In this document: positions 2,186 to 18,782 of the stretch, one piece after another
How the letters are laid out: each line of letters opens with the position of its first letter
Position numbering within the stretch: position 1 is the stretch's first letter
IMG/VR virus record: IMGVR_UViG_3300021478_000015
Coordinates: 92,984-156,983 of that record
DNA length: 64,000 bases
Strand: one strand, 5' to 3'
Source of the DNA: a virus
The notes under the pieces: generated by a model
Database searches by the model: none
What the model was told of the DNA's origin: nothing
Seen by the model: the letters and a program-made list of their open reading frames with translations, nothing else
Translations under genes and position numbers: made by a program

Positions 2186-3278
2186 ACCGGCGGGTCAGCA
2201 GCACGATCACCCCACCGGCCATGACCAGCAGCAGGCCCGAGCCCAGGCCCAGGCGGGTGTTGGAGCCGGTGAACGGCAGGGTGCCAGAAGCTGACGCCGG
2301 GGTGACCAGAGCGGGAACAGCGGTCTCCGGGGTGATGGTCTGGACCGCAGGGGTGCCGGGGCCGCCAGGAGTGGTCTGACCCGGCGGGAGCGTGGTGCCC
2401 GAAGGGGCAACGGTGGTGCCCGTGGGGGCAATCGTGGTCGTTGCACTGGGCAGCGTTGTGCCGGTTGGTGCAGTGGTGGTGGCTCCCGGAGCCGTGGTGG
2501 TGGTCACCGCGAACTGGGTGGTGAAGTTGATCACGCACAGGGCGTCCTCACCCTGATCCAGAGTGGTGGAGGCCGGGGTGAAAGAAGCGCTGCCGACACA
2601 GGACCAGCCCGAGTTGGTGTACCCCTCCGACTGGGCCAGAGGAGACAAGGTGTCGAAGAGCCCATAGGTGCCGGGTGGCACCACCGCGAAGGTCACACCA
2701 GGGCTATCGGTGATGCCCGAGAGGCTGACCGGCCCAGAGGCATCCAGAGTGAAGTCAGCCAGGGTGGCCGTACCGCCGTTCACCGTCGCCGCCAGGGTCA
2801 GGATGGTCAGGTTGGGCTGCTCGGTGGTGGTCGTTTCACCAGGCTGCGTGGTAGTGGTCTCGGCCGGTTGGGTGGTGGTCGTTTGCTCCGGCTGAGTAGT
2901 GGTGGTCTCCATGGGTTGCGTAGTGGTGGTCTGTTCCGGCTGAGTAGTAGTGGTTTGCTCTGGTTGGGTGGTGGTCGTTTCGTGTGGCTGAGTGGTGGTG
3001 GTCATCTCAGGCTTGGTGGTGGTGGTCTGGTGCGGCTGCGTGGTGGTCGTTTCCTGCGGTTTGGTCGTTGTCGTTTGATGCGGGTAGGTGGTGGTCGTTT
3101 CGTGTGGTGGCTTGGTGGTGGTGGTCGGATACGTCACCTTGGTGGTGGTGGTGCCGCAGTTGTAGCCACACCCGCCTGGAGGGGCTTGTCCGGCCGAGGC
3201 CGTGCTCGGCTGGAACAACAGGACCACTCCGAGGAGCCCAGCCAGCACGGTGACGACCTGGACAGCGTATTTCCTCAT
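2172..3278 (-). CDS. sortase-anchored (LPXTG) Thr-rich surface protein
   Basis: N-terminal signal peptide (ASA), Thr-rich repeats, prealbumin/SpaA-like beta domain with WSC...ALC pair, then LPFTG + hydrophobic TM + RRFKRS tail. Confidence 0.85.
   Translation of the reverse strand: MRKYAVQVVTVLAGLLGVVLLFQPSTASAGQAPPGGCGYNCGTTTTKVTYPTTTTKPPHETTTTYPHQTTTTKPQETTTTQPHQTTTTKPEMTTTTQPHETTTTQPEQTTTTQPEQTTTTQPMETTTTQPEQTTTTQPAETTTTQPGETTTTEQPNLTILTLAATVNGGTATLADFTLDASGPVSLSGITDSPGVTFAVVPPGTYGLFDTLSPLAQSEGYTNSGWSCVGSASFTPASTTLDQGEDALCVINFTTQFAVTTTTAPGATTTAPTGTTLPSATTTIAPTGTTVAPSGTTLPPGQTTPGGPGTPAVQTITPETAVPALVTPASASGTLPFTGSNTRLGLGSGLLLVMAGGVIVLLTRRFKRS
2822..3152 (-). repeat. coding tandem repeat, about 24-nt unit (TTTT[QK]P[EH][QE])
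   Basis: about 12 imperfect 8-aa units visible in the translation. Confidence 0.85.
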
Positions 3279-5047: not shown

Positions 5048-8000
5048 ATGAAGCACTACGCCGCCCTGGAGATCATCAGCGCTGAGTACGGCGATCAGCA
5101 CTCCCTCCGTCACCTGGCCCATCGGGCGGACTTCACCTACGCGCCACGTCCCGGCTACCTGTACGTCCGCTCCAGGGCCATCAGTTCACGCACGAATGAC
5201 AACTTCGATGACTTCCCGGCCGAGGAGATAGAGAAGGGCTACCGGTCGTTCATCGGGAAGCCAGTGTTCGTTAACCATGTCAACGAGGATCACAAGCGTG
5301 CTCGGGGTGTGGTCATCGATGCCGCCCTGCATCATGATGTGAATCCCAATGGTTCGCCGGATACATGGTGTGAAGTATTGATGGAAGTAGACGCACTACG
5401 CTTTCCGAAGTTGGCTCAAGCGATCGTCCAAGGTCATATCGATCGTACTTCCATGGGTGTTGACGTGGAGTACTCGATCTGTAGTGCCTGTGGTAATAAG
5501 GCCACGAACCCGGCGGAGTATTGTCGTCATATTCCGCAGATGAAGGGCTCGAAGATCGTCCGGCGGAATGCCGCCACCAACCGGCCAGAAGAGACTCTCA
5601 TCTTTGAGACCTGCTATGGGCTGAGCTTCTTCGAGAACTCGTTACTGGTCGAGGATCCCGCCGATCCCACGGCCTACTTCCTGGGCGTGGACGATCGTGG
5701 CCTCAGGATGGCCCAGAAGACCGCACATAGGAAGCTATGTCGGCAATGTCTCACTTCGTCATCATGTGCCGCGTACGGATGTGGGCGTAGCTCAGAGGGC
5801 CTGGGAGCTTTCGTGGCCAGCACACCGGGCAACTTCGACAAGATCCCTCAGCACCACTGGGATTACCTGTCCGATCTGGTGGACCGAGTGGGCCAGCGCG
5901 AGAAGACCCCCAAGGTGTGCTGGCAGGTGTTCTCGGCCATCGATCACAAGCTGGGCTACCCCCAGGAGTCCGGCTACTACCGGGGTGAGGGCCACTACTG
6001 GAATCGCCTGCCGGACGGCTCCATCCTCGATGCCAGCCATGATCAGTTCGAGGAGGACGACGACCCGGTGCGGATCTTCGCCCCTGGTGATCCCGAGCAC
6101 GGCCATTTTAAGACGGCTGTGCGCCACCAGGAGGGCCTGGGAGCCTTCGTGGCGGCCCATGACCTGGACGAGGCTGTGACCTCCTTCAAGCCCTATGCCG
6201 AAGAGCAAGGTTGGCATGATCCGACTTGCGTAGGTGGGCAATGCGACGTGGCCTCGACGGAGTTCGCCCAGCACCTCCATGAGCACGGCATCCCCCATGA
6301 GGTGGTGACCCACTATCCCGAGCCGGGTGGCCCCATGAGCCACAGCGTGGTCGAGGTCGGGGACCACACAGTGGACTGGACGGCTCGCCAGTTTGACCCC
6401 AAGGCGGACTTTCCTCACATCGAGCCCCATCACGTCACCCGCAGTCGCTGGCACCGCACCGAGCCCTACTACGGTGAGATCGAGTATGGCAAGGATTACC
6501 GAGAGGCGTCCTTAGCGGGTGATAAGTCCTGGATCAAAGAGGAGCATGACTACGAGGGTCGTCATGGGGAGCGCCGTCACATCACCCGCACCATGACGGG
6601 AGCATTGCCCACCCATCTGGTCCAGCACTTGATGGGTGTCAAGGGCGAGATACCCGGTGAGCATCGTAATAAGCAAGGTCAGCAATGGGAGGACTTCAAG
6701 TCCGACATCGCTCAGAACGGCATCAAGAACCCCATCTTTATCACCCAGGATCCGGGGGAGCGACCCAAGATCTCCGAGGGCAATCACCGCCGGGACGCGG
6801 CGGTGGAGCTTGGCCATCCCTACGTGCCGGTGGAGATGCGCTACTTCGGTCACGCCGAGCAGGATCCCGACAACCTGGAGGACAAGGCCCAGGCCCACTT
6901 CGATCGGGAGAACCAGATCCGCAGCTTGGGTACTCGCAGGCTCGCCCGTTACGAGCCCGAGCCCGACGCTCCCGAGGAGGGTGAGTACGAGAAGGAGCCC
7001 GATCCTTCGGGTTTCTTCCCCAACGGCATCGCCACCCGTTGGCGACAAGCGCATAAGCCGCTGGTGGCGGACGCCTTGCACGCCTGGAAGGGCGACCCCG
7101 TCAACGCTCTGACTCACTGGCACCACGAACTCAACGACGATCCCCAGCCTGACTCGGGCTCGGGCAAGCAGATGCGAGCCCAGTCCGGGGCTCTGCGCTG
7201 GGAACTTCAAAATAACTCCAAGACGTTCGGACGCAAGCTCTATCGAGGAGTGCCCACCGCCCAGGACCGCCTGCCCAAGGTGGGCGACATCATCGACCAT
7301 GACGACCGGCCGCGGGGCTACTCTTCCAACCGGGCCACGGCTTGGGCCTTCGCCCGCAAGTCGGGCTCCGACCACCTGCGCCGTCCCCTGGTCCCGGTCA
7401 CCTACCAGACCGCGCCGGGCACCCAAGGCCTGCGGATCAAGGACTACGGCACCGGCAGCGGTCTTGATCAGTCCGAGCAGGAGTACGTCCTCCATGGCCA
7501 GCATCAGGTCACCCACGTCGAGTCCACCGACAAGGGCCTCCATGTGCGGACCCGACCGTTACAGAGCTACACGGCCGGGCTCAGAGGCTTTGTGGCCGCA
7601 CGGGGCGATGACCCTGGCCTGGATGAGGCCCTGGACCAGTTGGGAGAGATCCTCTCCCGCCCTTCCCATGCTCCTCCCCCGAAGATCCTGCCCGAGGCCC
7701 ATGAGATGTACGGCGGCTACATCCATGAGCACCCTTCCGGTCACCTGCACGTCTCTGAGGCCCCTGGAGCGCTGTCTAAGCCCCTGGAGAAGCTCTACCG
7801 CATCGTTCACCCTAAGGAGTGGGAGGAGGCCCAGCAGAAGGGCTACCTGCAGTCCAACACGGCCTTCTCGCCGGGTTACACCAGGGCCTCGGCCCAGCCG
7901 GACGAACGCTGGCGGCGGCAATCGGCTGATCCCTCCGAGATTGCCCCCAAGGGCCACACCATAGAGATCGACTACCACCCCGATGACAACTGGCATGCCT

Positions 8001-11000
8001 CGGCCGAGGGCTACGCCGCCACCCGCTCGAAGATCCCGCTCAGCCGGGTCCGCAAGATGGCCAAGACCGAGGTCTCGGTGGCCGGGCTAGCAGTACTGGC
8101 CGCCGATACGGGCCGGGTGCTGATGCTGCAGCGCGCCAACCATGATGTCAAGGATCCGGCTGCGGGCACCTGGGAGTTCCCCGGTGGTCATCTCAACCCC
8201 GACGAAGCGCCAGTCGAGGGGGCTATACGGGAGTGGAAGGAAGAGCTTGGCTGCAAGCTGCCTGCCGGGCATGTCCAGGGCCATTGGATCTCGAAGAAGA
8301 TCTATCAAGGCTTCGTCTATGTCATCGAGCATGAGGACGAGGTTGACATAAACCACGATCATGAGAATCGCCAGGTCCTGAACCCCGATGATCCTGATGG
8401 GGATGAGATCGAGGTGGCGGCCTGGTTCGAGCCCAAGGACCTGCCCGACATGCCTGCCCTGCGCGACGAGGTCAAGAGCGGCACCGACTGGTCCAAGCTC
8501 AAGCTCAAGAAGACGGCCGGACTCGAAGCATTCCTGGCCGCCTACTACCATGTCAGCCCGCACTGGTTGCCATCAGGGACCAAGCTCACCCCCGGCGGGG
8601 GCCGTCGCAACTTCGGGGGCCGGGCCGACAGTGACGCCGTGTACATGGCTGGGTCAGAGGGCGAGGCCGAGCAGTGGGGCAACGCCATGGCCCAGGACGA
8701 GCCCACTGGCCATCTGCACATCTACGAGGTCCAGCCTCACGGCCCGGTCACCCACAGTCAGGGTCATGTGACCATGGACGACTTCCACGATGTGATCGGC
8801 CAGCACGCTGCCCCAGCGGCCACCATCGTCCGCCATCACTACTCCTACGATCCCGAGAGCGGGGAGGCCTTCTATCCCCATGAGGCCGGGCTTGGAGCCT
8901 TGGCGGCGGCCGAACCCACCTTCTACCACGGGACCAGCGACGATCTAGAGCCGGGTAGCCAGCTTTCGGTGGAGGAGGCCACTCGGCGGCAACCAGAGGT
9001 GGCCAAGGCCTTAGAGGATCGGGGTGGTCAGCACATCAGCTTCACCACCGACTACCAGCACGCCCAGATGTACGCCGGGGTCCGCGCCCAGACCCGCGGC
9101 GGGACGCCTCGGGTGTATCGGGTGCAACCAACCGGGGGCTACGAGCCCAACCCCGCCGACGAGAAGTGGCGGGAGGGCAAGCCGCCCATGTCCTTCAGGA
9201 CCAAGGAGCCGGTCACCGTCCTGGGGGAGGCCACGCCACCGAAGCGGCGACGGAAGCAGAGCGGACTGATGGCCTTTGTGGCTGTCAATGCTTCGGATGA
9301 GGTCCCGCCTGAGCCTGGTCTCTCGCCTATCCCTGAGGGCCACGTCCGGCTGTTCCACCAGACCGGCCCGAAGCACGTCGAGTCCATCCGTCAGAACGGG
9401 CTGACCATGGAGCATGCTCGGGCCACCGGAGGGCCGGTCGGGGTGTGGGCCAGCCACGGCACCCGCTTCTATCCCGGCCAGGACCACGCCACGGTGGAGT
9501 TCCACGTCCCCTACAAGGAGCTACAGGACACCGCCGGAGGCCAGTCGCCCCACCGCCATCAGCCCCAGGAGGACTGGGAGCAGTCCAACCACCACACCCT
9601 GGTCATCCCCCGCTCGATCAAGCCCCATGAGATCACCGCCATCCATGAGCCCTGGCACGATCGCTATCGGTACTTCCACAACGAGGGCATGACCGACGAG
9701 GTCAAGCAGGGTGGCTTCGACAACCTGAAGGACATCCCTGACTACGGCCGGGCCATCGACAAGATCAAGAGCGAGGCCAGCCTGCACCTGGCCATGAACA
9801 CCGAGGACGAGGTACCCCCTCGACTGGGCACCGCGCCCATCCCGGAGGGCCATGTGCGCCTCTATCACCACACTTGGTCCAAGAACGTGCCCAGCATCCG
9901 CGAGCACGGTCTCCTGGCCGAGATGGGAAAAGGTGACAGTGGCAAGGGCTACGGCAATGAGCTATCGGCCGGGGTATGGGCGGCTAGTCAGCATCCCGAG
10001 CCTGATCCCCAGAGCGACCGGCATGTGATCGAGTTCCACGCCCACCCCTCCGAGATCGATGTCAACGGGCCTTCTCCTGGCCAGGATGTCCATAAGTGGC
10101 AGCAAGGTGATCACAACGTCTTGATGCGGGGCTCGGTCAAGCCCGAGAACATCCTGGCTATCCATGCCCCCTGGCATACCGCTTATCATCAGATCAACGA
10201 TGATCCCCGCGACCGGGAGGATGTCAAGAACGGCAAGCTGGACTGGGTCCATAACGATCCCTCCATGCCGGGCGTGAGCAAGGCCGTTCACAAGATCCAG
10301 GCCGAGGGGGCGGCCCGGCCCAACATCGGCAAGGGCTGGTGGCTCACCCCCGAGGGCAAGAAGATCGGCGTGTACGACCACTATGAGACGACGCCTGGCA
10401 TGGCTCGTCAGATGATCCGCCCGCACATGGCGGAGAGTGGTCAGGTTAGGGTCCGTAGTTTCAACAATCAACTCAACGTGCAAACGGCCCGTCCCTTCAC
10501 CGATAAGCAGCGTCAGAGTTTGCTGATGGATGCGGACCGACATAGCCGCATGTTTGTGGACGTGCTCCACCCCGATACTGAGGAGTCCATCCACTCCGAG
10601 TCCGGGGGTCCCGAAGAAGCCGATCGCATGCTGGCCCGAGCCCATCGCGCTGCCATCCCCCATGAGGCCAAGAGGGCGGTGCAGGGTGCTCGAAAGGTCA
10701 CTCAGGTGCCCCTGCAACACATCCTCACTCACACCGAGCCCACCGACATGGCTAGCTACGGCCACACCTGGCCGGACGCCTTCCGCGACATCGAGGAGAA
10801 CCATGAGGACTTCGCCCCCAAGCATTGGGGCAAGTTCCTCGATCACGTCCAGGCTCACGGCATCCAGACTCCGGTGGTGATCCTGCATGACGGGGAGCGC
10901 CAGAAGCTGTTCTCCGGCCATCACCGGGTGTGGGCCGCCCACCGTTTGGGCCTCAGCCATGTCCCCGCCTATCACACCGACGATCCCTCCGAGGCCTATG

Positions 11001-14000
11001 ACTTGATGGACGAGCAGGCCGCTCATGAAAGCGATTGGCACAAGCAGGCTGGGCTATCGACCTTCATAGCCATCGAGGCTCACCCTGACAGCTACCATAC
11101 GCTGTATCGAGGATTGCACTTCGGTGAGATTGAGCCACACAATATCGATGACTTCCACAAGAATCCCCAGAAGTACATGGGCCATGAGAAGAATGTTGGG
11201 ATCCATTGGACCGACAATCCGGACTCGGCCTACAACTTTGCCACCGATAGAGATCCCGAAGGCTGGGCGCATGAGGGAGATCCCGATGAGGAGCAGGGAC
11301 ATCTCCACGGCGTGATCCTGGAGGGAAGAGTCCATCCTCGCCACATCATCGACCCGGAGTCTGAGGAGGGCCAGGGCTATGCCATGTCCGACGCCATCCT
11401 GGGCCATGAGCATCCCGAGAACGAGGTGACGGTGCGCGGCGATGCCCGTGTGCATGTCCACAAGATCCACGCCATCACCGAGCACCCCGAGACCGGTGAG
11501 AATCGTTGGACCACCCACAACGTCTCAGAGCATCACTTGGCCGTTCAATATGAAGCCCTCGGTCCTTATCGCAAGATCAACGTCGAAGACATCAAGCGCA
11601 ACATGATCATTCGTCCCAGTTGGGGGCAACATGATTGGACCCGTACTACTGGTGATGCTCAGCATGATCCCGATCATCCTGACGACACTTCGCGTGAGTT
11701 TCCCGATGAGGATGATCCCGATCACGTCAAGATGTACGTGATCCCCATTCACCGGACCTTCACGCCCCATCAGCCTGAGGGGACTCCCTATCACGTCCGG
11801 GTTCGCAAGCAGGCCGGATTGGAGGGCTTCATAGCGGCCCAGGGACCTACCTACTACCAGGGGCGGCGCAGCGATGGCAGCCGGGCTCAGATCGGCGGAG
11901 AGCGGGGTCAGGGCTGGGACGAGCATATGTTCGTGTCCCACGATCCCGAGGTGGCCCGCCTGTACGCCGGGCATCAGGGCAGCGTCCACGCCATCCACAT
12001 GGCCCCCGACACCAAGGTGCTCAAGATCGACCGGGCCAATGGCCCCACCTGGAAGCGCTACGCCAAGGGCACCGAGGGCCAGGGCCTGCTGGACGAGGCC
12101 AAGACCATCGTGGCCCGTGCCGGAGGAGAGGGCTACCACGTTGTGGAGTTCCACCGGCCGCACGATTACATCGGCCACGTCATCCTGGACCGATCCAAGG
12201 TTCAGGGCGAGGAGCATATGGCCGCCGGTCACGGTGATCTCATAGGACGAGGATTACACCTCAATCTCTCCGATGAAGACGGCGATCATGAGCTAGCCAA
12301 TAAGATCTGGGATCATCATCCTGATGCGGCTCGACATCTCCTCCACACTATCCATGACATAGGCGGTGGTCACGCCGGGGCTTGGTGGGGAAGACTTAAT
12401 CCTCAACATCGTGAGTTCAGCACCCATGAGGTCAAGGATTACGCCGAAGGAGGCGAAGGCGGCGAGGAGTTGATGAACAAGTGGCATCCTGAGGCCCATG
12501 ATCCCGAGGAAGGCAATCACGGTTTGCACGGTGGTGTGGATGTCGCCTTGATCGCTCACAACACCCATGGCTGGGACCCCGAGAAGAATCCTCTGGTGGC
12601 GGGCGGGCTCATGGGTAGCTCCTACATCCCCGAGGGCCAGGGCAAGGACATGCCCCTGCACTCGATCCATGTCAACGACGGTAGGGGCTGGCGACGGCTG
12701 CCTCACCCTCCTGGGCTGACCGTGACCGCGGCTGACGATGACGAGGATTGGCGGGGCCTGCACCAGCCCTCGATGGGGCCGCCTATCCACAACCTGCTGG
12801 AGAAGGACGAGGACGGCGGCCAGCTAGCCCCTGACGACATCTACACCCACATGCACTACTACACCGATGGCGAGGCCAACTGGGACAACGAGTCCCACGC
12901 CGCTATCCGCAAGGCCCGTGGTGACATGCCGCTACACCAGCGCCCGGCTGCACCGGCCAAGATGTTCTCGGAGCGAGCCGGTGGGGGCGAGATGAGCCCG
13001 GCCCGAGAAGCTGAAAGCGATGAGGCCTTCGCCCAGCGCCAGCAACGGCGCAAAGACGGTGAGCACCACGTCACCATCTACCGGGCTGCCCCCAAGGGGC
13101 TCAAGTCCATCGGGCCAGGGGATTGGGTCACGCCCTCGCCCAGCTACGCCCGCGACCACGCCCGTCAGGCCAGCGACCCCAAGAAGGACTGGCCGGTCTA
13201 CAAGGCCTCGGTCCCGGCCAAGCATGTGCGCTGGGCCGGGGACTCCCTCAACGAGTTCGGATATTCGGGGCCTGCGGTTAAGCCCACTTACCACACCAGG
13301 GGTGGCACCCAGGCCGAGCGTCTGGCCGCATTCGTGGTCGAGGCTGATCAGCCTTACGCCGGGGGCTACCAGTTCAAGTTCCGCAAGGCCCAACCCAACT
13401 CCATGGAGGCTCAGGCCGATAAGACGCTGAACTATCACCGCCTGGATGCCTTCCATGAGAACACCCAGGATCTTACCCAGGGTCGCGGTGGTCATGCAGG
13501 CTTTCTACTCTGGCATCACAAGACCGGTGAGATCGGCAGTATCGAGACCCTGCCCGAGCATCAGCGTCGAGGGCTGGCCACCGAGATGCTGGACCAGGCC
13601 CGCCAGATCTCCGCCACCACCCGAGGGGTCAAGCCCCCGAAGCACTCCAATCAGCGCACCGACGCCGGGGAGGCCTGGGCACGCTCGACTGGCGACCGGC
13701 TGCCTCGCCGGGTGCAATCCCTGGCCGCCTTCGTGGCTGCCCTGGACCCCTCCGAGATCTCTGAGACCTCACCGGAGGAGTTCCACCGCAACTTCTCCCG
13801 GTCCATCGCCGGTAGCCCCTTCGAGCGTCATGTCACCAACCACACCCCGGAGGAGATCCGCTCCGAGGGTATGAAGCCGCTTACTATCAACCATGGTACG
13901 AGTGGTGTCCTGATCCATGATCACGGGGATGGTAGGATAGAGCCGACAGGACTGTACAACGATCGGGAGAAAGGAGTGAAGGGTGCCGGTATAGATCTTC

Positions 14001-14398
14001 TCAAGCATGCCGTTGAGCATCACGGGGCGAACTACTTTGAGTGTTACGGCCCGCAACTGCCGAAGATGTACGAGAAGCTCGGGTTCCATACCACCGAGAA
14101 GTATCCGTTCGATCCCTCCCAGGCCCATCCGGACTGGGATTACGAGCAGCACAACCACCCTGATTACCACATCATGAGACCGAACGATCCCCAGCAGAAG
14201 ACGGCCGCGCTCCCGGCTGACGTGATCAGTCTTTCCGACGTGGACTGGGACGACCCGGCGGCGGTGGCCGCGTTCAAGGCCCAGACCGAAGCTGAGCTTG
14301 ACGCTGAGGGCGGCCAGGACTGGGTCCACATGACGCCCGAGCAGAAGGAAGCCTCCTGGCAGGCAGCCCTGGCTCAACTCGGGGTCCATCTCCCCTAG
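5048..14398 (+). CDS. prohead (capsid maturation) protease fused to a multi-enzyme polyprotein (ART, Nudix, ParB, GNAT, papain-like modules)
   Basis: N-terminal ~220 aa has PVFVNH / TSMG / CSACG..YCRH / FFENS..DPAD of a prohead protease. Downstream motifs: perfect Nudix box (GGHLNPDEAPVEGAIREWKEELG), GNHR and GHHR ParB motifs, LYRG..SS..EQE, FYHGT, HQRRGLAT. Located just upstream of the scaffold and capsid genes. Confidence 0.85.
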   Translation: MKHYAALEIISAEYGDQHSLRHLAHRADFTYAPRPGYLYVRSRAISSRTNDNFDDFPAEEIEKGYRSFIGKPVFVNHVNEDHKRARGVVIDAALHHDVNPNGSPDTWCEVLMEVDALRFPKLAQAIVQGHIDRTSMGVDVEYSICSACGNKATNPAEYCRHIPQMKGSKIVRRNAATNRPEETLIFETCYGLSFFENSLLVEDPADPTAYFLGVDDRGLRMAQKTAHRKLCRQCLTSSSCAAYGCGRSSEGLGAFVASTPGNFDKIPQHHWDYLSDLVDRVGQREKTPKVCWQVFSAIDHKLGYPQESGYYRGEGHYWNRLPDGSILDASHDQFEEDDDPVRIFAPGDPEHGHFKTAVRHQEGLGAFVAAHDLDEAVTSFKPYAEEQGWHDPTCVGGQCDVASTEFAQHLHEHGIPHEVVTHYPEPGGPMSHSVVEVGDHTVDWTARQFDPKADFPHIEPHHVTRSRWHRTEPYYGEIEYGKDYREASLAGDKSWIKEEHDYEGRHGERRHITRTMTGALPTHLVQHLMGVKGEIPGEHRNKQGQQWEDFKSDIAQNGIKNPIFITQDPGERPKISEGNHRRDAAVELGHPYVPVEMRYFGHAEQDPDNLEDKAQAHFDRENQIRSLGTRRLARYEPEPDAPEEGEYEKEPDPSGFFPNGIATRWRQAHKPLVADALHAWKGDPVNALTHWHHELNDDPQPDSGSGKQMRAQSGALRWELQNNSKTFGRKLYRGVPTAQDRLPKVGDIIDHDDRPRGYSSNRATAWAFARKSGSDHLRRPLVPVTYQTAPGTQGLRIKDYGTGSGLDQSEQEYVLHGQHQVTHVESTDKGLHVRTRPLQSYTAGLRGFVAARGDDPGLDEALDQLGEILSRPSHAPPPKILPEAHEMYGGYIHEHPSGHLHVSEAPGALSKPLEKLYRIVHPKEWEEAQQKGYLQSNTAFSPGYTRASAQPDERWRRQSADPSEIAPKGHTIEIDYHPDDNWHASAEGYAATRSKIPLSRVRKMAKTEVSVAGLAVLAADTGRVLMLQRANHDVKDPAAGTWEFPGGHLNPDEAPVEGAIREWKEELGCKLPAGHVQGHWISKKIYQGFVYVIEHEDEVDINHDHENRQVLNPDDPDGDEIEVAAWFEPKDLPDMPALRDEVKSGTDWSKLKLKKTAGLEAFLAAYYHVSPHWLPSGTKLTPGGGRRNFGGRADSDAVYMAGSEGEAEQWGNAMAQDEPTGHLHIYEVQPHGPVTHSQGHVTMDDFHDVIGQHAAPAATIVRHHYSYDPESGEAFYPHEAGLGALAAAEPTFYHGTSDDLEPGSQLSVEEATRRQPEVAKALEDRGGQHISFTTDYQHAQMYAGVRAQTRGGTPRVYRVQPTGGYEPNPADEKWREGKPPMSFRTKEPVTVLGEATPPKRRRKQSGLMAFVAVNASDEVPPEPGLSPIPEGHVRLFHQTGPKHVESIRQNGLTMEHARATGGPVGVWASHGTRFYPGQDHATVEFHVPYKELQDTAGGQSPHRHQPQEDWEQSNHHTLVIPRSIKPHEITAIHEPWHDRYRYFHNEGMTDEVKQGGFDNLKDIPDYGRAIDKIKSEASLHLAMNTEDEVPPRLGTAPIPEGHVRLYHHTWSKNVPSIREHGLLAEMGKGDSGKGYGNELSAGVWAASQHPEPDPQSDRHVIEFHAHPSEIDVNGPSPGQDVHKWQQGDHNVLMRGSVKPENILAIHAPWHTAYHQINDDPRDREDVKNGKLDWVHNDPSMPGVSKAVHKIQAEGAARPNIGKGWWLTPEGKKIGVYDHYETTPGMARQMIRPHMAESGQVRVRSFNNQLNVQTARPFTDKQRQSLLMDADRHSRMFVDVLHPDTEESIHSESGGPEEADRMLARAHRAAIPHEAKRAVQGARKVTQVPLQHILTHTEPTDMASYGHTWPDAFRDIEENHEDFAPKHWGKFLDHVQAHGIQTPVVILHDGERQKLFSGHHRVWAAHRLGLSHVPAYHTDDPSEAYDLMDEQAAHESDWHKQAGLSTFIAIEAHPDSYHTLYRGLHFGEIEPHNIDDFHKNPQKYMGHEKNVGIHWTDNPDSAYNFATDRDPEGWAHEGDPDEEQGHLHGVILEGRVHPRHIIDPESEEGQGYAMSDAILGHEHPENEVTVRGDARVHVHKIHAITEHPETGENRWTTHNVSEHHLAVQYEALGPYRKINVEDIKRNMIIRPSWGQHDWTRTTGDAQHDPDHPDDTSREFPDEDDPDHVKMYVIPIHRTFTPHQPEGTPYHVRVRKQAGLEGFIAAQGPTYYQGRRSDGSRAQIGGERGQGWDEHMFVSHDPEVARLYAGHQGSVHAIHMAPDTKVLKIDRANGPTWKRYAKGTEGQGLLDEAKTIVARAGGEGYHVVEFHRPHDYIGHVILDRSKVQGEEHMAAGHGDLIGRGLHLNLSDEDGDHELANKIWDHHPDAARHLLHTIHDIGGGHAGAWWGRLNPQHREFSTHEVKDYAEGGEGGEELMNKWHPEAHDPEEGNHGLHGGVDVALIAHNTHGWDPEKNPLVAGGLMGSSYIPEGQGKDMPLHSIHVNDGRGWRRLPHPPGLTVTAADDDEDWRGLHQPSMGPPIHNLLEKDEDGGQLAPDDIYTHMHYYTDGEANWDNESHAAIRKARGDMPLHQRPAAPAKMFSERAGGGEMSPAREAESDEAFAQRQQRRKDGEHHVTIYRAAPKGLKSIGPGDWVTPSPSYARDHARQASDPKKDWPVYKASVPAKHVRWAGDSLNEFGYSGPAVKPTYHTRGGTQAERLAAFVVEADQPYAGGYQFKFRKAQPNSMEAQADKTLNYHRLDAFHENTQDLTQGRGGHAGFLLWHHKTGEIGSIETLPEHQRRGLATEMLDQARQISATTRGVKPPKHSNQRTDAGEAWARSTGDRLPRRVQSLAAFVAALDPSEISETSPEEFHRNFSRSIAGSPFERHVTNHTPEEIRSEGMKPLTINHGTSGVLIHDHGDGRIEPTGLYNDREKGVKGAGIDLLKHAVEHHGANYFECYGPQLPKMYEKLGFHTTEKYPFDPSQAHPDWDYEQHNHPDYHIMRPNDPQQKTAALPADVISLSDVDWDDPAAVAAFKAQTEAELDAEGGQDWVHMTPEQKEASWQAALAQLGVHLP

Positions 14399-14551: not shown

Positions 14552-14592
14552 AACTGACAATAGCATCTCGGGCCGGGGGATGTGGGCGCGGG

Positions 14593-14628
14593 CCTGTCGG
14601 TGACCGGGTCAGGGCGACGAAGGGATGA
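14593..14628 (+). promoter_or_regulatory. late-promoter-like motif copy 2
   Basis: CCTGTC-N11-CAG-N5-CGAAG-N3-TGA, 1 nt before ATG 14630. Confidence 0.8.
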
Positions 14629-14629
14629 G

Positions 14630-16813
14630 ATGTCGGTCTTCACCGCCAAGGAGCAGATCTCGGTCCCGCCCGAGGTGGACACCATGCGGGAGGAGATCTG
14701 CCCGGTCTGCGGGTCGGATGACTCCTACGTGGGCGACAAGTGCTCGGTGTGCGGCTTCGAGAAGCCCCCGTCGATCTTCATGGACCCCGACACCTCTCTG
14801 GCTCAGAACGTCAACCTGCGCCAGGAGGACCAGGAGGACCAGAACGACGATGGGGCCGGAGAGCTTCAGTGCCCCAACTGCGGTGAGACCTTCCCCTCCG
14901 CCGAGGCCCTGAACGCGGCCGGGGATCCCCATCTGGCCCCCGCCGCCCAGACCATCCCGGCCGAGCAGGACCTGGAGGTCCCAGAAGGGGCGGAGGAGGA
15001 GCCTGAGCCCCTCCAGAGCCCGGACGACAACCAGATGGCCCCGCCGCCCCCAGCGGGCCAGGAGGGGCCTCCTGAGCCCCCTGAGAACGAAGATGAGCAA
15101 GTCCCGCCCGGCCAAGAGGAGGATGAGGATGAGCAGCCTCCGCCTGAGGGCGCAGTCCCGCCGGAGGAGGAGCCCGAGGAGGAGGGTGGCCCACCTGCTG
15201 AGCTAGCCGGACCCCCTGAGCCCGGTGGAGCCCCCGAGGAGGAGTCTCCCGAGCAGGGCCAGGTCGAGCAGGTCGATCCCGAGGCCATGGCCGAGCAGCA
15301 GTACGCCGCCGACCAGGAGGGCATGCAGCAGACCGGCTACGAGGAGGGCGACATCTGCCCCAACTGTGGCCAGGGCCTGCTCCAGCCCCTCGGCACCGAG
15401 AACGCCGTGCCGGAGCCGGGTCAACCGCCCGAGGTCGAGGGCTCTGACGAGATGCCCCAGGGCGGTCCTCGACCCTTCCCGCCCGGCGTGCCCGGCGATG
15501 ACGAGCCCGAGCCCGAGGACGAAGAGGAGGAGGGTCCTCCCTCAGCGGCTGCTCCGGACCAGGAGGGCGGCGAAGCCGAAGACGAGCAGGAAGACGACGA
15601 AGACGAAGAGGACGAAGACGGGGACCAGCCTCCCTGGCTGAACAAGAAGAAATCAGCAGTTCTTTTTAACTACCAAACCAGCAGCATCGAAAGGAGCCTC
15701 AGTACGATGCCTACCCGCCCCCGCCGCCCAGTGCAGCGCCAAGCTACCACTCAGACCCAGCCCGAGCCGACGCCGCGTAGCTCGGTCCGTACCGCCCTGC
15801 ACGCCTCGCTCAACGCCCAGGCCAACGTCCTGCGCCGTATGACCGCCGCCTGCCAGCAGGAGCGTCTCCTGCGCCTGGCCGCCGAGGCCCGCATCTTTAC
15901 CCTGGAGCGGCAGATGTTCCGCTTCGCCACCTTGGCCGGAGCCGACGCTGACCCCGAGCTTCGAGGCATCAACGAGGAGGGCTATCGGGTCCATGCCTCC
16001 TTGATGGCTCGCGCCGCCTCCTTGCACACCGCCGACCAGAGGGATCCAGCCCAGCCGGTGCCCGAGGGCGCACCCGAGGCCCCCATCGTCACCGAGCAGC
16101 AGGCGGCCGAGCCCGCGGCGCGCACCGACGTGACCCAGCTTGGAGCCACCCCGGTGACCGATGTGTCGGCCGACGCCACCATCGCCGTGGACCAGCCCTA
16201 CGGCACCGAGGCCTTCGAGCCCATGAACCTCAACGAGGTGGACGTGACCGCACCCGTACAGAACACCCAGGGGCACCTGCCGCCTGAGCAAACCATCATC
16301 CCCGTCGAGGTGCGTGTCGGTGACCCCGACGATCCCCAGCCCTCCTACGGCTGGACCCTTGATGGTGGCAATCCGTCCGGCCAGACCGGAGGGTCGGTGG
16401 GATCCGGGCAGCCCACTGCAGGCGCGCCGGGCTCGCCTCCGGGGGTCATGCCGGGCACCAGGGCATCCCGTAACGACGGCCAGGTGTCCCTGGGTGCGCT
16501 GCGCCTGGCTCGTCTTCGCATCCAGGCTGGTATTGCCCCGGCCAACCAGGACGACCTGTCCATCGCCGCGAGCATCCAGGACAACCCGGATATGACCGTC
16601 GAGGCCGTCAACACCGAGATCAAGACCCTGACCCAGGTGCTCTCGGTCCAGGTCCCCAACGGCCGGGTGGCCTCGGCCAACCGTCGCCTGGTCCCTCGCT
16701 CGGCTACCACCCAGAGCCCGGCTCCATCCCTGGCTCCCACCGAGATGGAAGGCCCCATCCGCGCCCATGCCTCCACCGGGCAAGTAACCGCGGATGAGAT
16801 GCTCTTCGAGTAG
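14630..16813 (+). CDS. capsid scaffolding-like protein (acidic, Zn-ribbon motifs)
   Basis: CPVCG..CSVCG and CPNCG x2; long E/P/D-rich region; helical C-terminus; lies between protease and capsid genes; start moved to ATG 14630 after the promoter motif. Confidence 0.7.
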   Translation: MSVFTAKEQISVPPEVDTMREEICPVCGSDDSYVGDKCSVCGFEKPPSIFMDPDTSLAQNVNLRQEDQEDQNDDGAGELQCPNCGETFPSAEALNAAGDPHLAPAAQTIPAEQDLEVPEGAEEEPEPLQSPDDNQMAPPPPAGQEGPPEPPENEDEQVPPGQEEDEDEQPPPEGAVPPEEEPEEEGGPPAELAGPPEPGGAPEEESPEQGQVEQVDPEAMAEQQYAADQEGMQQTGYEEGDICPNCGQGLLQPLGTENAVPEPGQPPEVEGSDEMPQGGPRPFPPGVPGDDEPEPEDEEEEGPPSAAAPDQEGGEAEDEQEDDEDEEDEDGDQPPWLNKKKSAVLFNYQTSSIERSLSTMPTRPRRPVQRQATTQTQPEPTPRSSVRTALHASLNAQANVLRRMTAACQQERLLRLAAEARIFTLERQMFRFATLAGADADPELRGINEEGYRVHASLMARAASLHTADQRDPAQPVPEGAPEAPIVTEQQAAEPAARTDVTQLGATPVTDVSADATIAVDQPYGTEAFEPMNLNEVDVTAPVQNTQGHLPPEQTIIPVEVRVGDPDDPQPSYGWTLDGGNPSGQTGGSVGSGQPTAGAPGSPPGVMPGTRASRNDGQVSLGALRLARLRIQAGIAPANQDDLSIAASIQDNPDMTVEAVNTEIKTLTQVLSVQVPNGRVASANRRLVPRSATTQSPAPSLAPTEMEGPIRAHASTGQVTADEMLFE

Positions 16814-17113: not shown

Positions 17114-17749
17114 GTGATTCGTGTTCCCATCTCCAGGTCGTACATCAAGCGGACGATCCGGCCCAACTATGGGTGGACGCAAGCCACGCCCAAGTCCGGG
17201 TATCTGGATCCGGCTTGGAACCGCTCCGTTCCCATCTGGCCCGGCATGGCCTTCATGCGGACCACGGGCGCGTCCGGTTACACCGGCCCGTATCAGACCT
17301 TCGGAGCCACTTCAGGTGGTCCCAACTACAGCCTTCTCAACGCCACTGGCGTCCCGGCTGGTCTGGTCGGTAACTACATCGGCGGCGAGGGCATCGATGA
17401 GCTTCTCGATACCGGTGTGTCGGCCTTGGCCGTGTGGGTCCTCGACCCTGACGCCGAGTTCGAGATCCTGGCCCCGGCCTTCGACGCCAACCTGACCTGG
17501 ACCGACCCTGGCAACGGCACTGACGCCCTGGTCTACGCCCGCACCGCCAACCTGGGTGGAGCGGTAGGTCTCAACGGTCTCGGTGGAGCCATCGCAGGAG
17601 GCAGCTACACCGGCACCTACGGCCTGCAGGGTCAGCTTGTGACCGCCGCGGACGCCAACAAGTCCACCCAGCCGGTGGCCCGGCTCATCGCCGTGAACTC
17701 GAACATCTCCATCACTGTCGGCGGCCTGATGGTCCGCTCCGGCTTCTGA
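17114..17749 (+). CDS. capsid decoration/cement protein
   Basis: AGGAGG RBS; directly upstream of the major capsid gene; Gly-rich beta protein (IWPGM..., VWVL..DAEFEILAPAF). Confidence 0.65.
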   Translation: MIRVPISRSYIKRTIRPNYGWTQATPKSGYLDPAWNRSVPIWPGMAFMRTTGASGYTGPYQTFGATSGGPNYSLLNATGVPAGLVGNYIGGEGIDELLDTGVSALAVWVLDPDAEFEILAPAFDANLTWTDPGNGTDALVYARTANLGGAVGLNGLGGAIAGGSYTGTYGLQGQLVTAADANKSTQPVARLIAVNSNISITVGGLMVRSGF

Positions 17750-17789: not shown

Positions 17790-18782
17790 ATGAGCATGGT
17801 TGCCACCGCAGCGGGGCTAGCGCCGAAGCGAGCCAAGAAGTCGGACGATTACGTCCAGGAGATCCTCAAGCGCCGCGGTGGGGACGGCAACGTTCCCTCC
17901 CTGACCCATGAGGCCAAGGTCCGCAAGCTCTCGTTGATCCTCCAGGACGAGGTCAACGGCATCCGCCGCCTGGGCGTGGGCATGGTCGGCCCTATCCAGC
18001 TAAAGCTGCGCTACCAGGGCATCGTCCGCAACGTGCTGATCGAGGACCCGGTCACGCCGGGCACCCCGGTGGAGTACGACGTGTGGGACGACCTCGGCCA
18101 GGCCTACCTCATGAGTGGCACCGAAGGCGAGGTCCGGGTCACTCCCTTCGAAGGCAAGCGCCTGCCCATCCGGTTCTGGCGTATCGCCTCCCGTCCGGCC
18201 ATCCGCAAGGAGGACCTGTTCTACCTCCGCATCAATGCAGTCGAGCAGGCCCAGGACGAGACCAAGCAGGCCATCATGAAGCAAGAGGACAGCCGGATGA
18301 TGGTGATCATCCAGGCCGCCCTCACCGACTACGCCTCCCGGCCGGACCATGTGGTCACCCCCAACCACACCGTGTACGAGGCTTCGGGGTACTTCACCCC
18401 GCAGTCCATGTACACCGCGGTGGCCCAGTCCGACATGCACGAACTGCCTGCCGGGCGCATGTTGGTCAACCCCTTTGACTACCGGGACTTCTTCCGCTGG
18501 GACATCAACACCACCGGCTGGGCCTTCAAGGACCGTATCGTGGCCGGGGAGCAGATCCAGAGCTTCGGTGAGTTCCAGTTCCAGCGTTCCATCATGGTCC
18601 CCTCGGGCCAGATGTTCCTGCTTCCCAACCCTGACTTCCTGGGTGTGTTCCCGGTCCTGTACTCGCTCGATGTGGAGGAGAACCACAACGTCGAGGCCTT
18701 CTGGAAGGGCTGGGTGTTCGATGAGATGGTGTCGATGGCCATCCTCAACCCTCGGGGTATCACCACCGTTCTCAAGGGCTAA
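17790..18782 (+). CDS. major capsid protein (HK97 fold)
   Basis: AAGGAG RBS; 330 aa; strongly biased codons; GPIQLKLRYQGIVRNVL..YDVWDDLGQAY and GWVFDE..ILNPRG recalled from Bxz1-type capsid proteins. Confidence 0.85.
   Translation: MSMVATAAGLAPKRAKKSDDYVQEILKRRGGDGNVPSLTHEAKVRKLSLILQDEVNGIRRLGVGMVGPIQLKLRYQGIVRNVLIEDPVTPGTPVEYDVWDDLGQAYLMSGTEGEVRVTPFEGKRLPIRFWRIASRPAIRKEDLFYLRINAVEQAQDETKQAIMKQEDSRMMVIIQAALTDYASRPDHVVTPNHTVYEASGYFTPQSMYTAVAQSDMHELPAGRMLVNPFDYRDFFRWDINTTGWAFKDRIVAGEQIQSFGEFQFQRSIMVPSGQMFLLPNPDFLGVFPVLYSLDVEENHNVEAFWKGWVFDEMVSMAILNPRGITTVLKG

Follow-up and report, generated by a model that had tools for sequence, protein, structure and literature searches.

How many ADP-ribosyltransferase (ART)-fold domains can a single phage gene hold, and what would a phage do with them? 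This question is raised by a 64,000-nucleotide stretch, here referred to as the window, which spans positions 92,984 to 156,983 of IMG/VR record IMGVR_UViG_3300021478_000015. The record is the genome of an uncultured phage, comprises 156,983 bases, is rated complete and has a GC content of about 62%. An earlier reading of the letters alone, here called the original prediction, had proposed up to nine or ten ART-fold domains of several subfamilies in one protein, encoded within the interval 6947-13318. In the window, positions 5048-14398 on the plus strand form a single open reading frame (ORF) of 3116 amino acids (P0001), and the interval 6947-13318, corresponding to amino acids (aa) 634-2757, lies wholly within it. 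Our analysis indicates that this ORF probably encodes a phage "polyvalent" effector polyprotein, in which a protease is followed by about eleven linker-bounded segments and from which the ARTs would act in the new host.

ART-fold modules in a single reading frame

Homologues were gathered by three word-index searches and one exhaustive search, and one alignment was then made for each module. Pfam families were tested against the whole genome in six frames at a threshold of E ≤ 10, with positive controls recovered. All of the motifs quoted in the original prediction are present where they had been placed and share one open frame, and most of them exceed chance, with R, S/T and E(xE), or H, being invariant or nearly so in families at 30-50% identity. 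The modules carrying these motifs are referred to below as a, b, arr1, arr2, d1, d2, e, f, g and h; they and the other features described within the polyprotein lie on the plus strand. As for the predicted nine or ten ART folds, four are firm (arr1, arr2, e, and h), four are probable (a, f, d1, and d2), one is possible (b), and the last, g, is unsupported. The more general proposal, that many ART-superfamily domains from several unrelated families are joined in one protein, is borne out, with a, e, and h being of the R-S-E type, arr1, arr2, and f being Arr-like, and d1 and d2 belonging to a separate family. Besides the ARTs, aa 634-2757 contain a NUDIX domain, one ParB/Srx domain, and three modules of unknown fold, namely g, aa 1766-1890, and aa 2160-2256.

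Module e (11075-11527; aa 2010-2160) contains the motifs TLYRGL at aa 2018, GIHWT at aa 2051, and PENEV at aa 2123, and its R, G-x-H-W-T, A..F, and E-x-E positions are invariant in 24 homologues with 32-88% identity. When these homologues were compared with Pfam, no ART family was matched, and the single weak match was to an unrelated family. An AlphaFold model was made for aa 2003-2400 with an alignment for e only, and over e the predicted local distance difference test (pLDDT) score was mostly 86-96. The structural neighbours of this model are almost exclusively ART toxins and PARPs; Foldseek again returned ART families (E 0.02-0.1, probability up to 0.96), and the ESM Atlas returned viral hypothetical clusters (template modelling [TM] score of 0.82 by target) together with an ADPrib_exo_Tox/ART cluster and FRG clusters, these with low TM scores. 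In the numbering of the model, R2021 is located on the first strand (15-26), T2055 ends the strand at 51-53 ahead of a helix at 56-63, and E2124/E2126 lie just before the strand at 125-127.

Module h, together with its N-terminal helical part (12737-13318; aa 2564-2757), carries TIYRA at aa 2676, GDWVT at aa 2691, and LNEFG at aa 2734. Among 50 homologues (YR, GDWV.S, YA..H, and E.GY), the R, GDW, and E residues are invariant, and Y, S, and H are nearly so. The model of aa 2400-2757, for which an alignment was used for aa 2560 onward and h only, has a pLDDT of 94-98 over h and places R2679 in the strand at 275-281, T2695/S2697 in the strand at 294-296 with a helix at 299-306 following, and E2736 before the strand at 338-340. 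Foldseek matches were weaker than those for e and were likewise enriched for PARPs, Vis, and ExoS, and the matches in BFVD were phage proteins, including one "Large polyvalent protein associated domain" protein. Both models can be superposed, for the greater part of the domain, on ART catalytic domains of solved structure. The superposition scores are middling, Foldseek against the PDB gave nothing at E ≤ 0.001 for either model, and PDB sequence profile searches gave no match for either module; it is the make-up of the neighbour lists, rather than the scores, that argues for an ART fold. In both sequence and model, e and h have the features that characterize the R-S-E clade, namely an arginine on strand 1, a Ser/Thr that closes strand 2 ahead of a helix, and a glutamate (often ExE) where the catalytic strand begins, all of them conserved. 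On the basis of these confident models and their ART neighbours, we assign e and h, the LYRGLH and VTIYRA modules of the original prediction, firmly to ART folds of the R-S-E type.

The same domain as h is found under another name in known phages. Module h matches phrog_2579, named "ParB C-terminal domain" (E 7e-24), and its homologues occur in 166 phage records, 157 of which are from Mycobacterium phages, with others from Gordonia and Rhodococcus phages (tblastn identities of 40-48%). The labels "ParB-like nuclease domain protein" and "ParB C-terminal domain" are carried by some of these homologues, and many others are annotated as hypothetical; the Kostyavirus protein Toto gp127, a "ParB-like nuclease domain protein" of 129 aa, is approximately the size of the domain. 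While the name of phrog_2579 implies a part of ParB, the model places h in the ART superfamily with a predicted R-S-E triad, and on this assignment more than 150 mycobacteriophage records would have to be re-annotated. With regard to better-known R-S-E proteins, the pertussis toxin S1, Rhs TreX-TreTu, and PltA toxins show the same R, S/T, and ExE arrangement. However, the identity to these toxins is 10-17%, there is no profile match, H-W-T takes the place of S-T-S, and the toxins are secreted, whereas the modules described here are found in a phage-head context.

Module a (7115-7576; aa 690-843) is the third candidate of this type, with KLYRG at aa 730 (R733), GYSSN at aa 757 (S760), and SEQEY at aa 809 (E810/E812). 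Its family is small: a search of viral contigs gave one more relative, and LYRG, [YL][ST]SN, and EQE are invariant in 4/4 known members. HHalign relates a to e at 50% (E 1.7e-4) and superimposes S-S-N on W-T-D and EQE on ExE. Based on these motifs, we consider it quite likely that a is an ART fold.

Arr-like labels had been given to the modules with YYHVS and FYHGT, and these labels hold. The first, arr1 (8543-8887; aa 1166-1280; YYHVS at aa 1166), is truncated and divergent and matches PF12120 with 24.5 bits (E 3e-5), just under the cut-off of 25 bits, while arr2 (8912-9262; aa 1289-1405; FYHGT at aa 1292, with the histidine H1295) matches the same family with 64.5 bits when the protein was scanned and 50.5 bits when the genome was searched. 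The two are linked by an arr2 jackhmmer profile (E 2e-17) and by HHalign (98.8%). In addition, arr2 matches the Arr-ms structures 2hw2 and 9iaf (E 1e-5), with its YHGT histidine on H19. Sequence comparison thus identifies arr1 and arr2 firmly as ART folds, and they are the only ones of the predicted modules that sequence libraries by themselves recognize as such. The match of arr2 to NF033144 (E 3e-11, 43 bits) falls below the NCBIfam equivalog cut-off of 130 bits, and the copies are therefore Arr-family domains and not Arr equivalogs; their substrate need not be a rifamycin. Module f (11840-12247; aa 2265-2400), with TYYQG at aa 2268 and FVSHD at aa 2295, is related to arr2 by HHalign at 90.8% (E 1.2e-6), which superimposes the YHG and [ST]xDxxxAxxYA motifs, and is probably an Arr-like ART fold. 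Arr-family ARTs have been recorded in Microbacterium and Gordonia phages (PMC9503650). Unlike Arr, the copies described here are embedded in a head polyprotein, and residues are altered in arr2 and f. Outside the window, the same genome has a stand-alone 148-aa Arr-ms-type ORF (G000:C1:52758-52991, plus strand; PF12120, 25.4 bits, E 1.7e-6), which brings the number of Arr-like domains in the phage to no fewer than three or four.

Modules d1 (aa 1414-1589) and d2 (aa 1590-1765) are tandem paralogues (9287-10342; HHalign, 100%) of an unannotated H..W..E family that also occurs as numerous stand-alone proteins of about 180 residues. They start with RLFHQT at aa 1434 and RLYHHT at aa 1604, respectively, and the family motifs are RLxHxT, in which R, H, and T are nearly invariant, followed by SI..GL, an invariant glutamate (VEFH), and a C-terminal HEPWH, in which the first H and the W are invariant and the E is also listed as such. 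The strand-1/helix-1 pattern RLxHxT..N..SI...GL resembles that of DarT (PF14487), DUF7002 (PF22531), and E. coli DarT1 (8baq). Module d2 matches DUF7002 with 15.7 bits, below the cut-off of 27 (E 1e-3; aa 1604-1624 on profile positions 2-22), and among the d relatives, 21/44 gave weak matches to DUF7002 and 4/44 gave weak matches to DarT. In PDB profile searches, DarT1 was the top ART match (E 0.36) in the first search, which also listed PARP15 at an E value of about 1, and the top match overall in the second (E 0.18); by ESM features, Tox-ART-HYD1 and PARP were found at 0.92. All of these likenesses to DarT and DUF7002 are below the cut-offs and are confined to about 21 to 26 N-terminal residues, the NAD-site motif. 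However, the weak matches recur only to ART families (DUF7002, DarT, PARP15, and Tox-ART-HYD1), which argues that d1 and d2 are each likely to be ART folds as well. In contrast to DarT, no DarG-like partner is present here, and the C-terminal HEPWH is restricted to the d family. For one stand-alone d homologue, the surroundings are small phage genes, a solo Arr gene among them (L002). Another, of 308 aa, lies near GNAT genes and a TraG/TrwB-type coupling protein of a type IV secretion system (T4SS) (L003; ENA contig_21447, 170078-183004), from which we conclude that the d family also travels with conjugative elements.

The remaining two modules are less clear. Module b (7601-8047; aa 852-1000; KLYRIV at aa 915, within the pattern LYR..EW..A..GY) belongs to a 16-member family, and HHalign relates it to d2 at 58%, superimposing the strand-1 motif. 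Its Pfam-named neighbours by ESM features are exclusively ART families (0.86-0.89). When a and b together were searched for in longer proteins by word index, only b relatives were found. An ART fold for b is conceivable, with the balance tipping slightly against it. For module g (12245-12727; aa 2400-2560), which had been described as a divergent LIGRGLH..GAWW counterpart of e, no ART support was obtained. It has no Pfam, PDB, or PHROG match, its part of the AlphaFold model, made from the single sequence, has a pLDDT of <60, and LIGRGLH (LIGRGL at aa 2398), which among seven family members recurs only in the closest relative, falls outside the part that is conserved in the family. That g could be a decayed copy of e was also considered and rejected, as the HHalign score between e and g is 1.2% and the e profile misses g in the genome.

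It could be asked whether the motifs are deceptive and whether only arr1, arr2, e, and h are ART folds, with a, b, d1, d2, and f merely mimicking them in what would be an ordinary polyvalent protein. None of the modules a, b, d, e, f, and g was matched in PADLOC or in single-module PHROG scans, and when 50,697 phage records were searched by tblastn with a, b, d, and e, nothing was found. PDB sequence profiles returned noise alone for a, f, and g, and none of a, b, d, and f has a significant Pfam, PHROG, PADLOC, or PDB sequence match; the a-e and b-d2 HHalign links are weak, and the likeness of d to DarT and DUF7002 is short. Against this, the motifs of a and d are invariant within each family and stand in R-S-ExE or H..E order, HHalign superimposes catalytic motifs and relates f to arr2 at 90.8%, and the named weak neighbours of d and b are ART families without exception. 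We therefore regard mimicry as an unlikely explanation and continue with the reading that most of these modules are genuine ART folds.

Protease end, linkers, and head-gene context

The N terminus of the polyprotein is a head-maturation (prohead, assemblin-like) protease domain (5138-5674; aa 31-209), as identified by matches to phrog_18299 (E 2e-22) and phrog_2774 (E 4e-61). This domain is 46% identical to the N terminus of the 1240-aa protein gp86 of Mycobacterium phage Cane17 and is also found in Bixzunavirus relatives. The gene for Cane17 gp86 is likewise located directly upstream of the gene for the major head protein. Only the protease domain is common to the two proteins, and the linker motif described below was not found in Cane17 gp86. 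In the window, the major head protein is encoded at 17790-18782, 3.4 kb downstream of the polyprotein ORF (phrog_2522, E 1e-92). The protease domain, the head-gene context, and the synteny with Cane17 together place the gene at the site of the prohead protease in an approximately 150-kb actinobacterial myophage. The phage contigs that encode the long mosaic relatives of the polyprotein (P0002-P0016) are about 150 kb in length. These proteins, and many others from the exhaustive search, draw on the same modules, arranged in different orders. In profile scans, the long relatives contained one to six ART-like modules each, and the nine in the protein described here are the maximum of the sample. 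A megablast search with the whole gene gave no match.

A short linker motif, G/S/R-L-x-x-F/L-[VLIA]-A/V-x (GLxAFVAA type), recurs ten times between positions 5798 and 13741, with copies at aa 251, 363, 844, 1158, 1281, 1406, 2002, 2257, 2758, and 2891, each of which marks a module border. The linker is also found between modules in six long relatives (P0002-P0007), in which the modules are shuffled, and no further copy was found in any frame of >150 aa across the 64-kb window. The copies are putative processing sites, and, as they are confined to this ORF, it is likely that they are cut by the protease domain of the same chain. A general prohead-protease site common to the head protein or scaffold was considered for the linker and rejected, as the motif is confined to the polyprotein ORF. 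The repeated linker provides a concrete candidate for a cleavage and packaging signal of an assemblin-like protease.

What can be read directly from the data is the reading frame itself, the identities of arr1, arr2, e, and h and of the NUDIX, ParB, and GNAT domains, the conservation of the catalytic motifs within the module families, the linker pattern, and the location among head genes. With ART, NUDIX, ParB, GNAT, and protease domains in one chain near a head gene, the protein has the combination by which polyvalent proteins are recognized.

A proposed packaged effector payload and its alternatives

Several observations weigh against a polyprotein of active ARTs that is processed in the head. 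First, the subfamily labels of the original prediction could largely not be retained, since the hidden Markov model tests for five families were all negative in the whole genome at the threshold given above. For module a, labelled "ARTC/Alt/VIP2-like", PF03496 (ADPrib_exo_Tox) did not match, and only the clade-level R-S-ExE signature is left; for b, labelled "DUF952-like", PF06108 did not match in the genome or with b alone; for d1 and d2, labelled "Tpt1-like", PF01885 did not match, and the sole trace was NF002014 (E 0.12 over 22 residues); and PF18760 did not match module f, labelled "ART-PolyVal-like", which is Arr-like instead. DarT (PF14487) also gave no match. Second, inspection of the catalytic triads gave a divided result: R, S/T, and E(xE) are conserved in a, e, and h, but f has a glutamine (YYQG) in place of the NAD-site histidine that its four relatives have (YYHG), and arr2, when aligned to 2hw2, has Asn at D84 and Ser/Phe at Y49, which, with H19, we take to be the key residues of Arr-ms. 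No conserved acidic residue was found in the alignment of b, and the part of the AlphaFold model covering f, made without an alignment, is of low confidence (pLDDT mostly <50). Third, the linker was not found in the major head protein or in the gene downstream of the polyprotein, and as it is absent from the other long frames of the window, there is no independent substrate for cleavage by the protease.

In light of these altered residues, it is conceivable that the ART folds are genuine and yet mostly non-catalytic, serving as head or scaffold filler, as binders of NAD+ or ADP-ribose, or as decoys for ART-based host defences. The substitution in f, the loss of two of the three key residues in arr2, and the truncated, divergent state of arr1 would fit this explanation, as would the position of the gene, which is that of a protease/scaffold gene, and the appearance of IcmQ, an NAD-binding protein that is not an enzyme, near the top of the structural neighbours of e. 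However, among homologues that are only 30-50% identical, no change is seen in R, S/T, and E(xE) of a, e, and h, and little or none in H..E of d, a pattern of purifying selection on catalysis that weakens this explanation, and NUDIX and GNAT enzymes with intact motifs are present in the same protein. We consider a mostly non-catalytic role improbable and favour a payload of active enzymes.

The closest known counterparts are the polyvalent proteins described by Iyer, Burroughs, Anand, de Souza, and Aravind (2017, PMC5512222), which contain 2 to 15 domains, have ARTs as their commonest modifying domain, and are predicted to be packaged in the head and injected. ARTs can be numerous in this class, with 12 copies in WP_023121221.1 of P. 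aeruginosa, a Pseudomonas prophage protein (PMC5512222), and fusions of ARTs and Nudix domains to head proteins, the capsid-processing serine peptidase among them, are frequent, above all in myoviruses (Iyer et al. 2022, PMC9503650). As in the polyvalent proteins (PMC5512222), unrelated effectors are joined here in a giant chain encoded among virion genes, and a peptidase has been proposed to cut such chains into units. The differences are also clear. The assemblin-like peptidase is N-terminal here, whereas it was reported always to be C-terminal in the polyvalent proteins (PMC5512222); the ARTs of the latter are one H-Y-D family (ART-PolyVal), whereas several families are found here, among them R-S-E ARTs, which the literature describes as absent from genuine polyvalent proteins; and a short conserved linker is present here at every module border, unlike in the proteins described previously (PMC5512222). 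T4 Alt offers a second comparison. It is likewise an R-S-E ART that is tied to the head and the prohead protease and is proposed to act at infection; however, Alt has a single domain and is cut once by a separate protease, whereas in the present protein one chain holds the protease together with about 20 modules. Since head-packaged ARTs, polyvalent proteins, and Nudix-peptidase fusions are already known, the polyprotein is best read as an extreme variant of the polyvalent class.

By analogy with T4 Alt, with the Dar-operon protein DdrB of phage P1, and with the comparative analyses (PMC5512222, PMC9503650), we infer cleavage, packaging, injection, catalysis, and targets as follows. The protease end would carry the chain into the procapsid, and during head maturation the protease would cut the linkers. 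The ARTs would thus remain fused, and perhaps inactive, until inside the capsid, which would protect the producing cell. The fragments would then be ejected with the DNA and act ahead of any phage gene expression, spending NAD+ of the new host on the ADP-ribosylation of different targets. The R-S-E modules would modify proteins, as with T4 Alt, the DarT-like pair may target nucleic acid, and the Arr-like modules may target a small molecule or another hydroxyl acceptor, with the NUDIX, ParB/Srx, and GNAT domains working alongside the ARTs.

The enzymes could, instead, be active late in the producing cell, during assembly, on phage or host components and without being injected. The gene does lie within the late head-gene block, and stand-alone d and Arr homologues are found among small non-structural genes (L002). 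However, the fusion to a prohead protease and the ORF-specific linker argue for capsid targeting and processing, T4 Alt, phage P1 DdrB, and the comparative analyses (PMC5512222, PMC9503650) favour head packaging, and the d homologue adjoining a T4SS coupling protein (L003) fits effectors that arrive with DNA. Late action without injection is therefore, in our estimate, a poor account of this locus, and injection with the phage DNA is preferred.

Should the modules prove active and be injected, no other viral protein known would carry so dense and so diverse a set of ARTs. The polyprotein would then also be a test bed for the proposal, computational so far, that head-processed polyvalent proteins are at work within minutes of the start of infection. 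Three of the ART families (e, h, and d) are without Pfam models. In its widest form, which we put forward tentatively and with somewhat more doubt than belief, the proposal is that a lineage of approximately 150-kb actinobacterial myophages uses the prohead protease as the carrier of a swappable, GLxAFVAA-bounded effector cassette. The cassette described here would then comprise at least eight active ARTs of at least five families, those three absent from Pfam among them, and each infection would involve the ADP-ribosylation of proteins, nucleic acid, and small molecules.

Other modules and neighbouring genes

The polyprotein contains two ParB/Srx N-terminal-type domains. Copy 1 (6623-6871; aa 526-608) matches PHROG ParB-like families over aa 540-606, was also recovered by a ParB profile made from copy 2, and lies just upstream of aa 634-2757; copy 2 (10763-11008; aa 1906-1987) lies within this interval and matches PF02195 (E 6e-5) and TIGR00180 (E 1e-6). 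Both share linker-bounded segments with ARTs, the first with a (6623-7576) and the second with d1 and d2 (9287-11008), and in many relatives ParB domains adjoin h, e, or d (also in L005, 2324-2713). This recurrent pairing of ParB and ART domains may be the origin of the name "ParB C-terminal domain" given to h.

A NUDIX hydrolase domain is located at 8087-8452 (aa 1014-1135; PF00293, 65.5 bits, E 6e-18) and has MutT-like PDB matches. Toward the C terminus, two GNAT acetyltransferase domains (13391-14104; aa ~2782-2888 and ~2948-3019) were identified by PF00583, PF13508, phrog_2563, and a GNAT profile. The NUDIX and GNAT motifs are intact in the polyprotein.

Four further modules were noticed. 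The one right after the protease (5822-6133; aa 259-362) has a weak match to YunG (PF24585) at aa 312-337 (E 5.5e-5), and the next (6158-6560; aa ~371-505) has a weaker one to the same family at aa 371-540 (E 0.038), together with a Cys...His...Asp-like pattern. The module at 11525-11815 (aa 2160-2256) has no family match and zero homologues among 197 collected proteins, and that at 10343-10717 (aa 1766-1890), also without a family match, is conserved in six relatives, with identities of 75-87%.

Between the polyprotein and the major head protein, two ORFs are present. The first (14582-16813, plus strand) encodes 743 aa and has no PHROG match. The next (17114-17749) matches phrog_2783, a family of unknown function, and occupies the same position as gp87 in Cane17.

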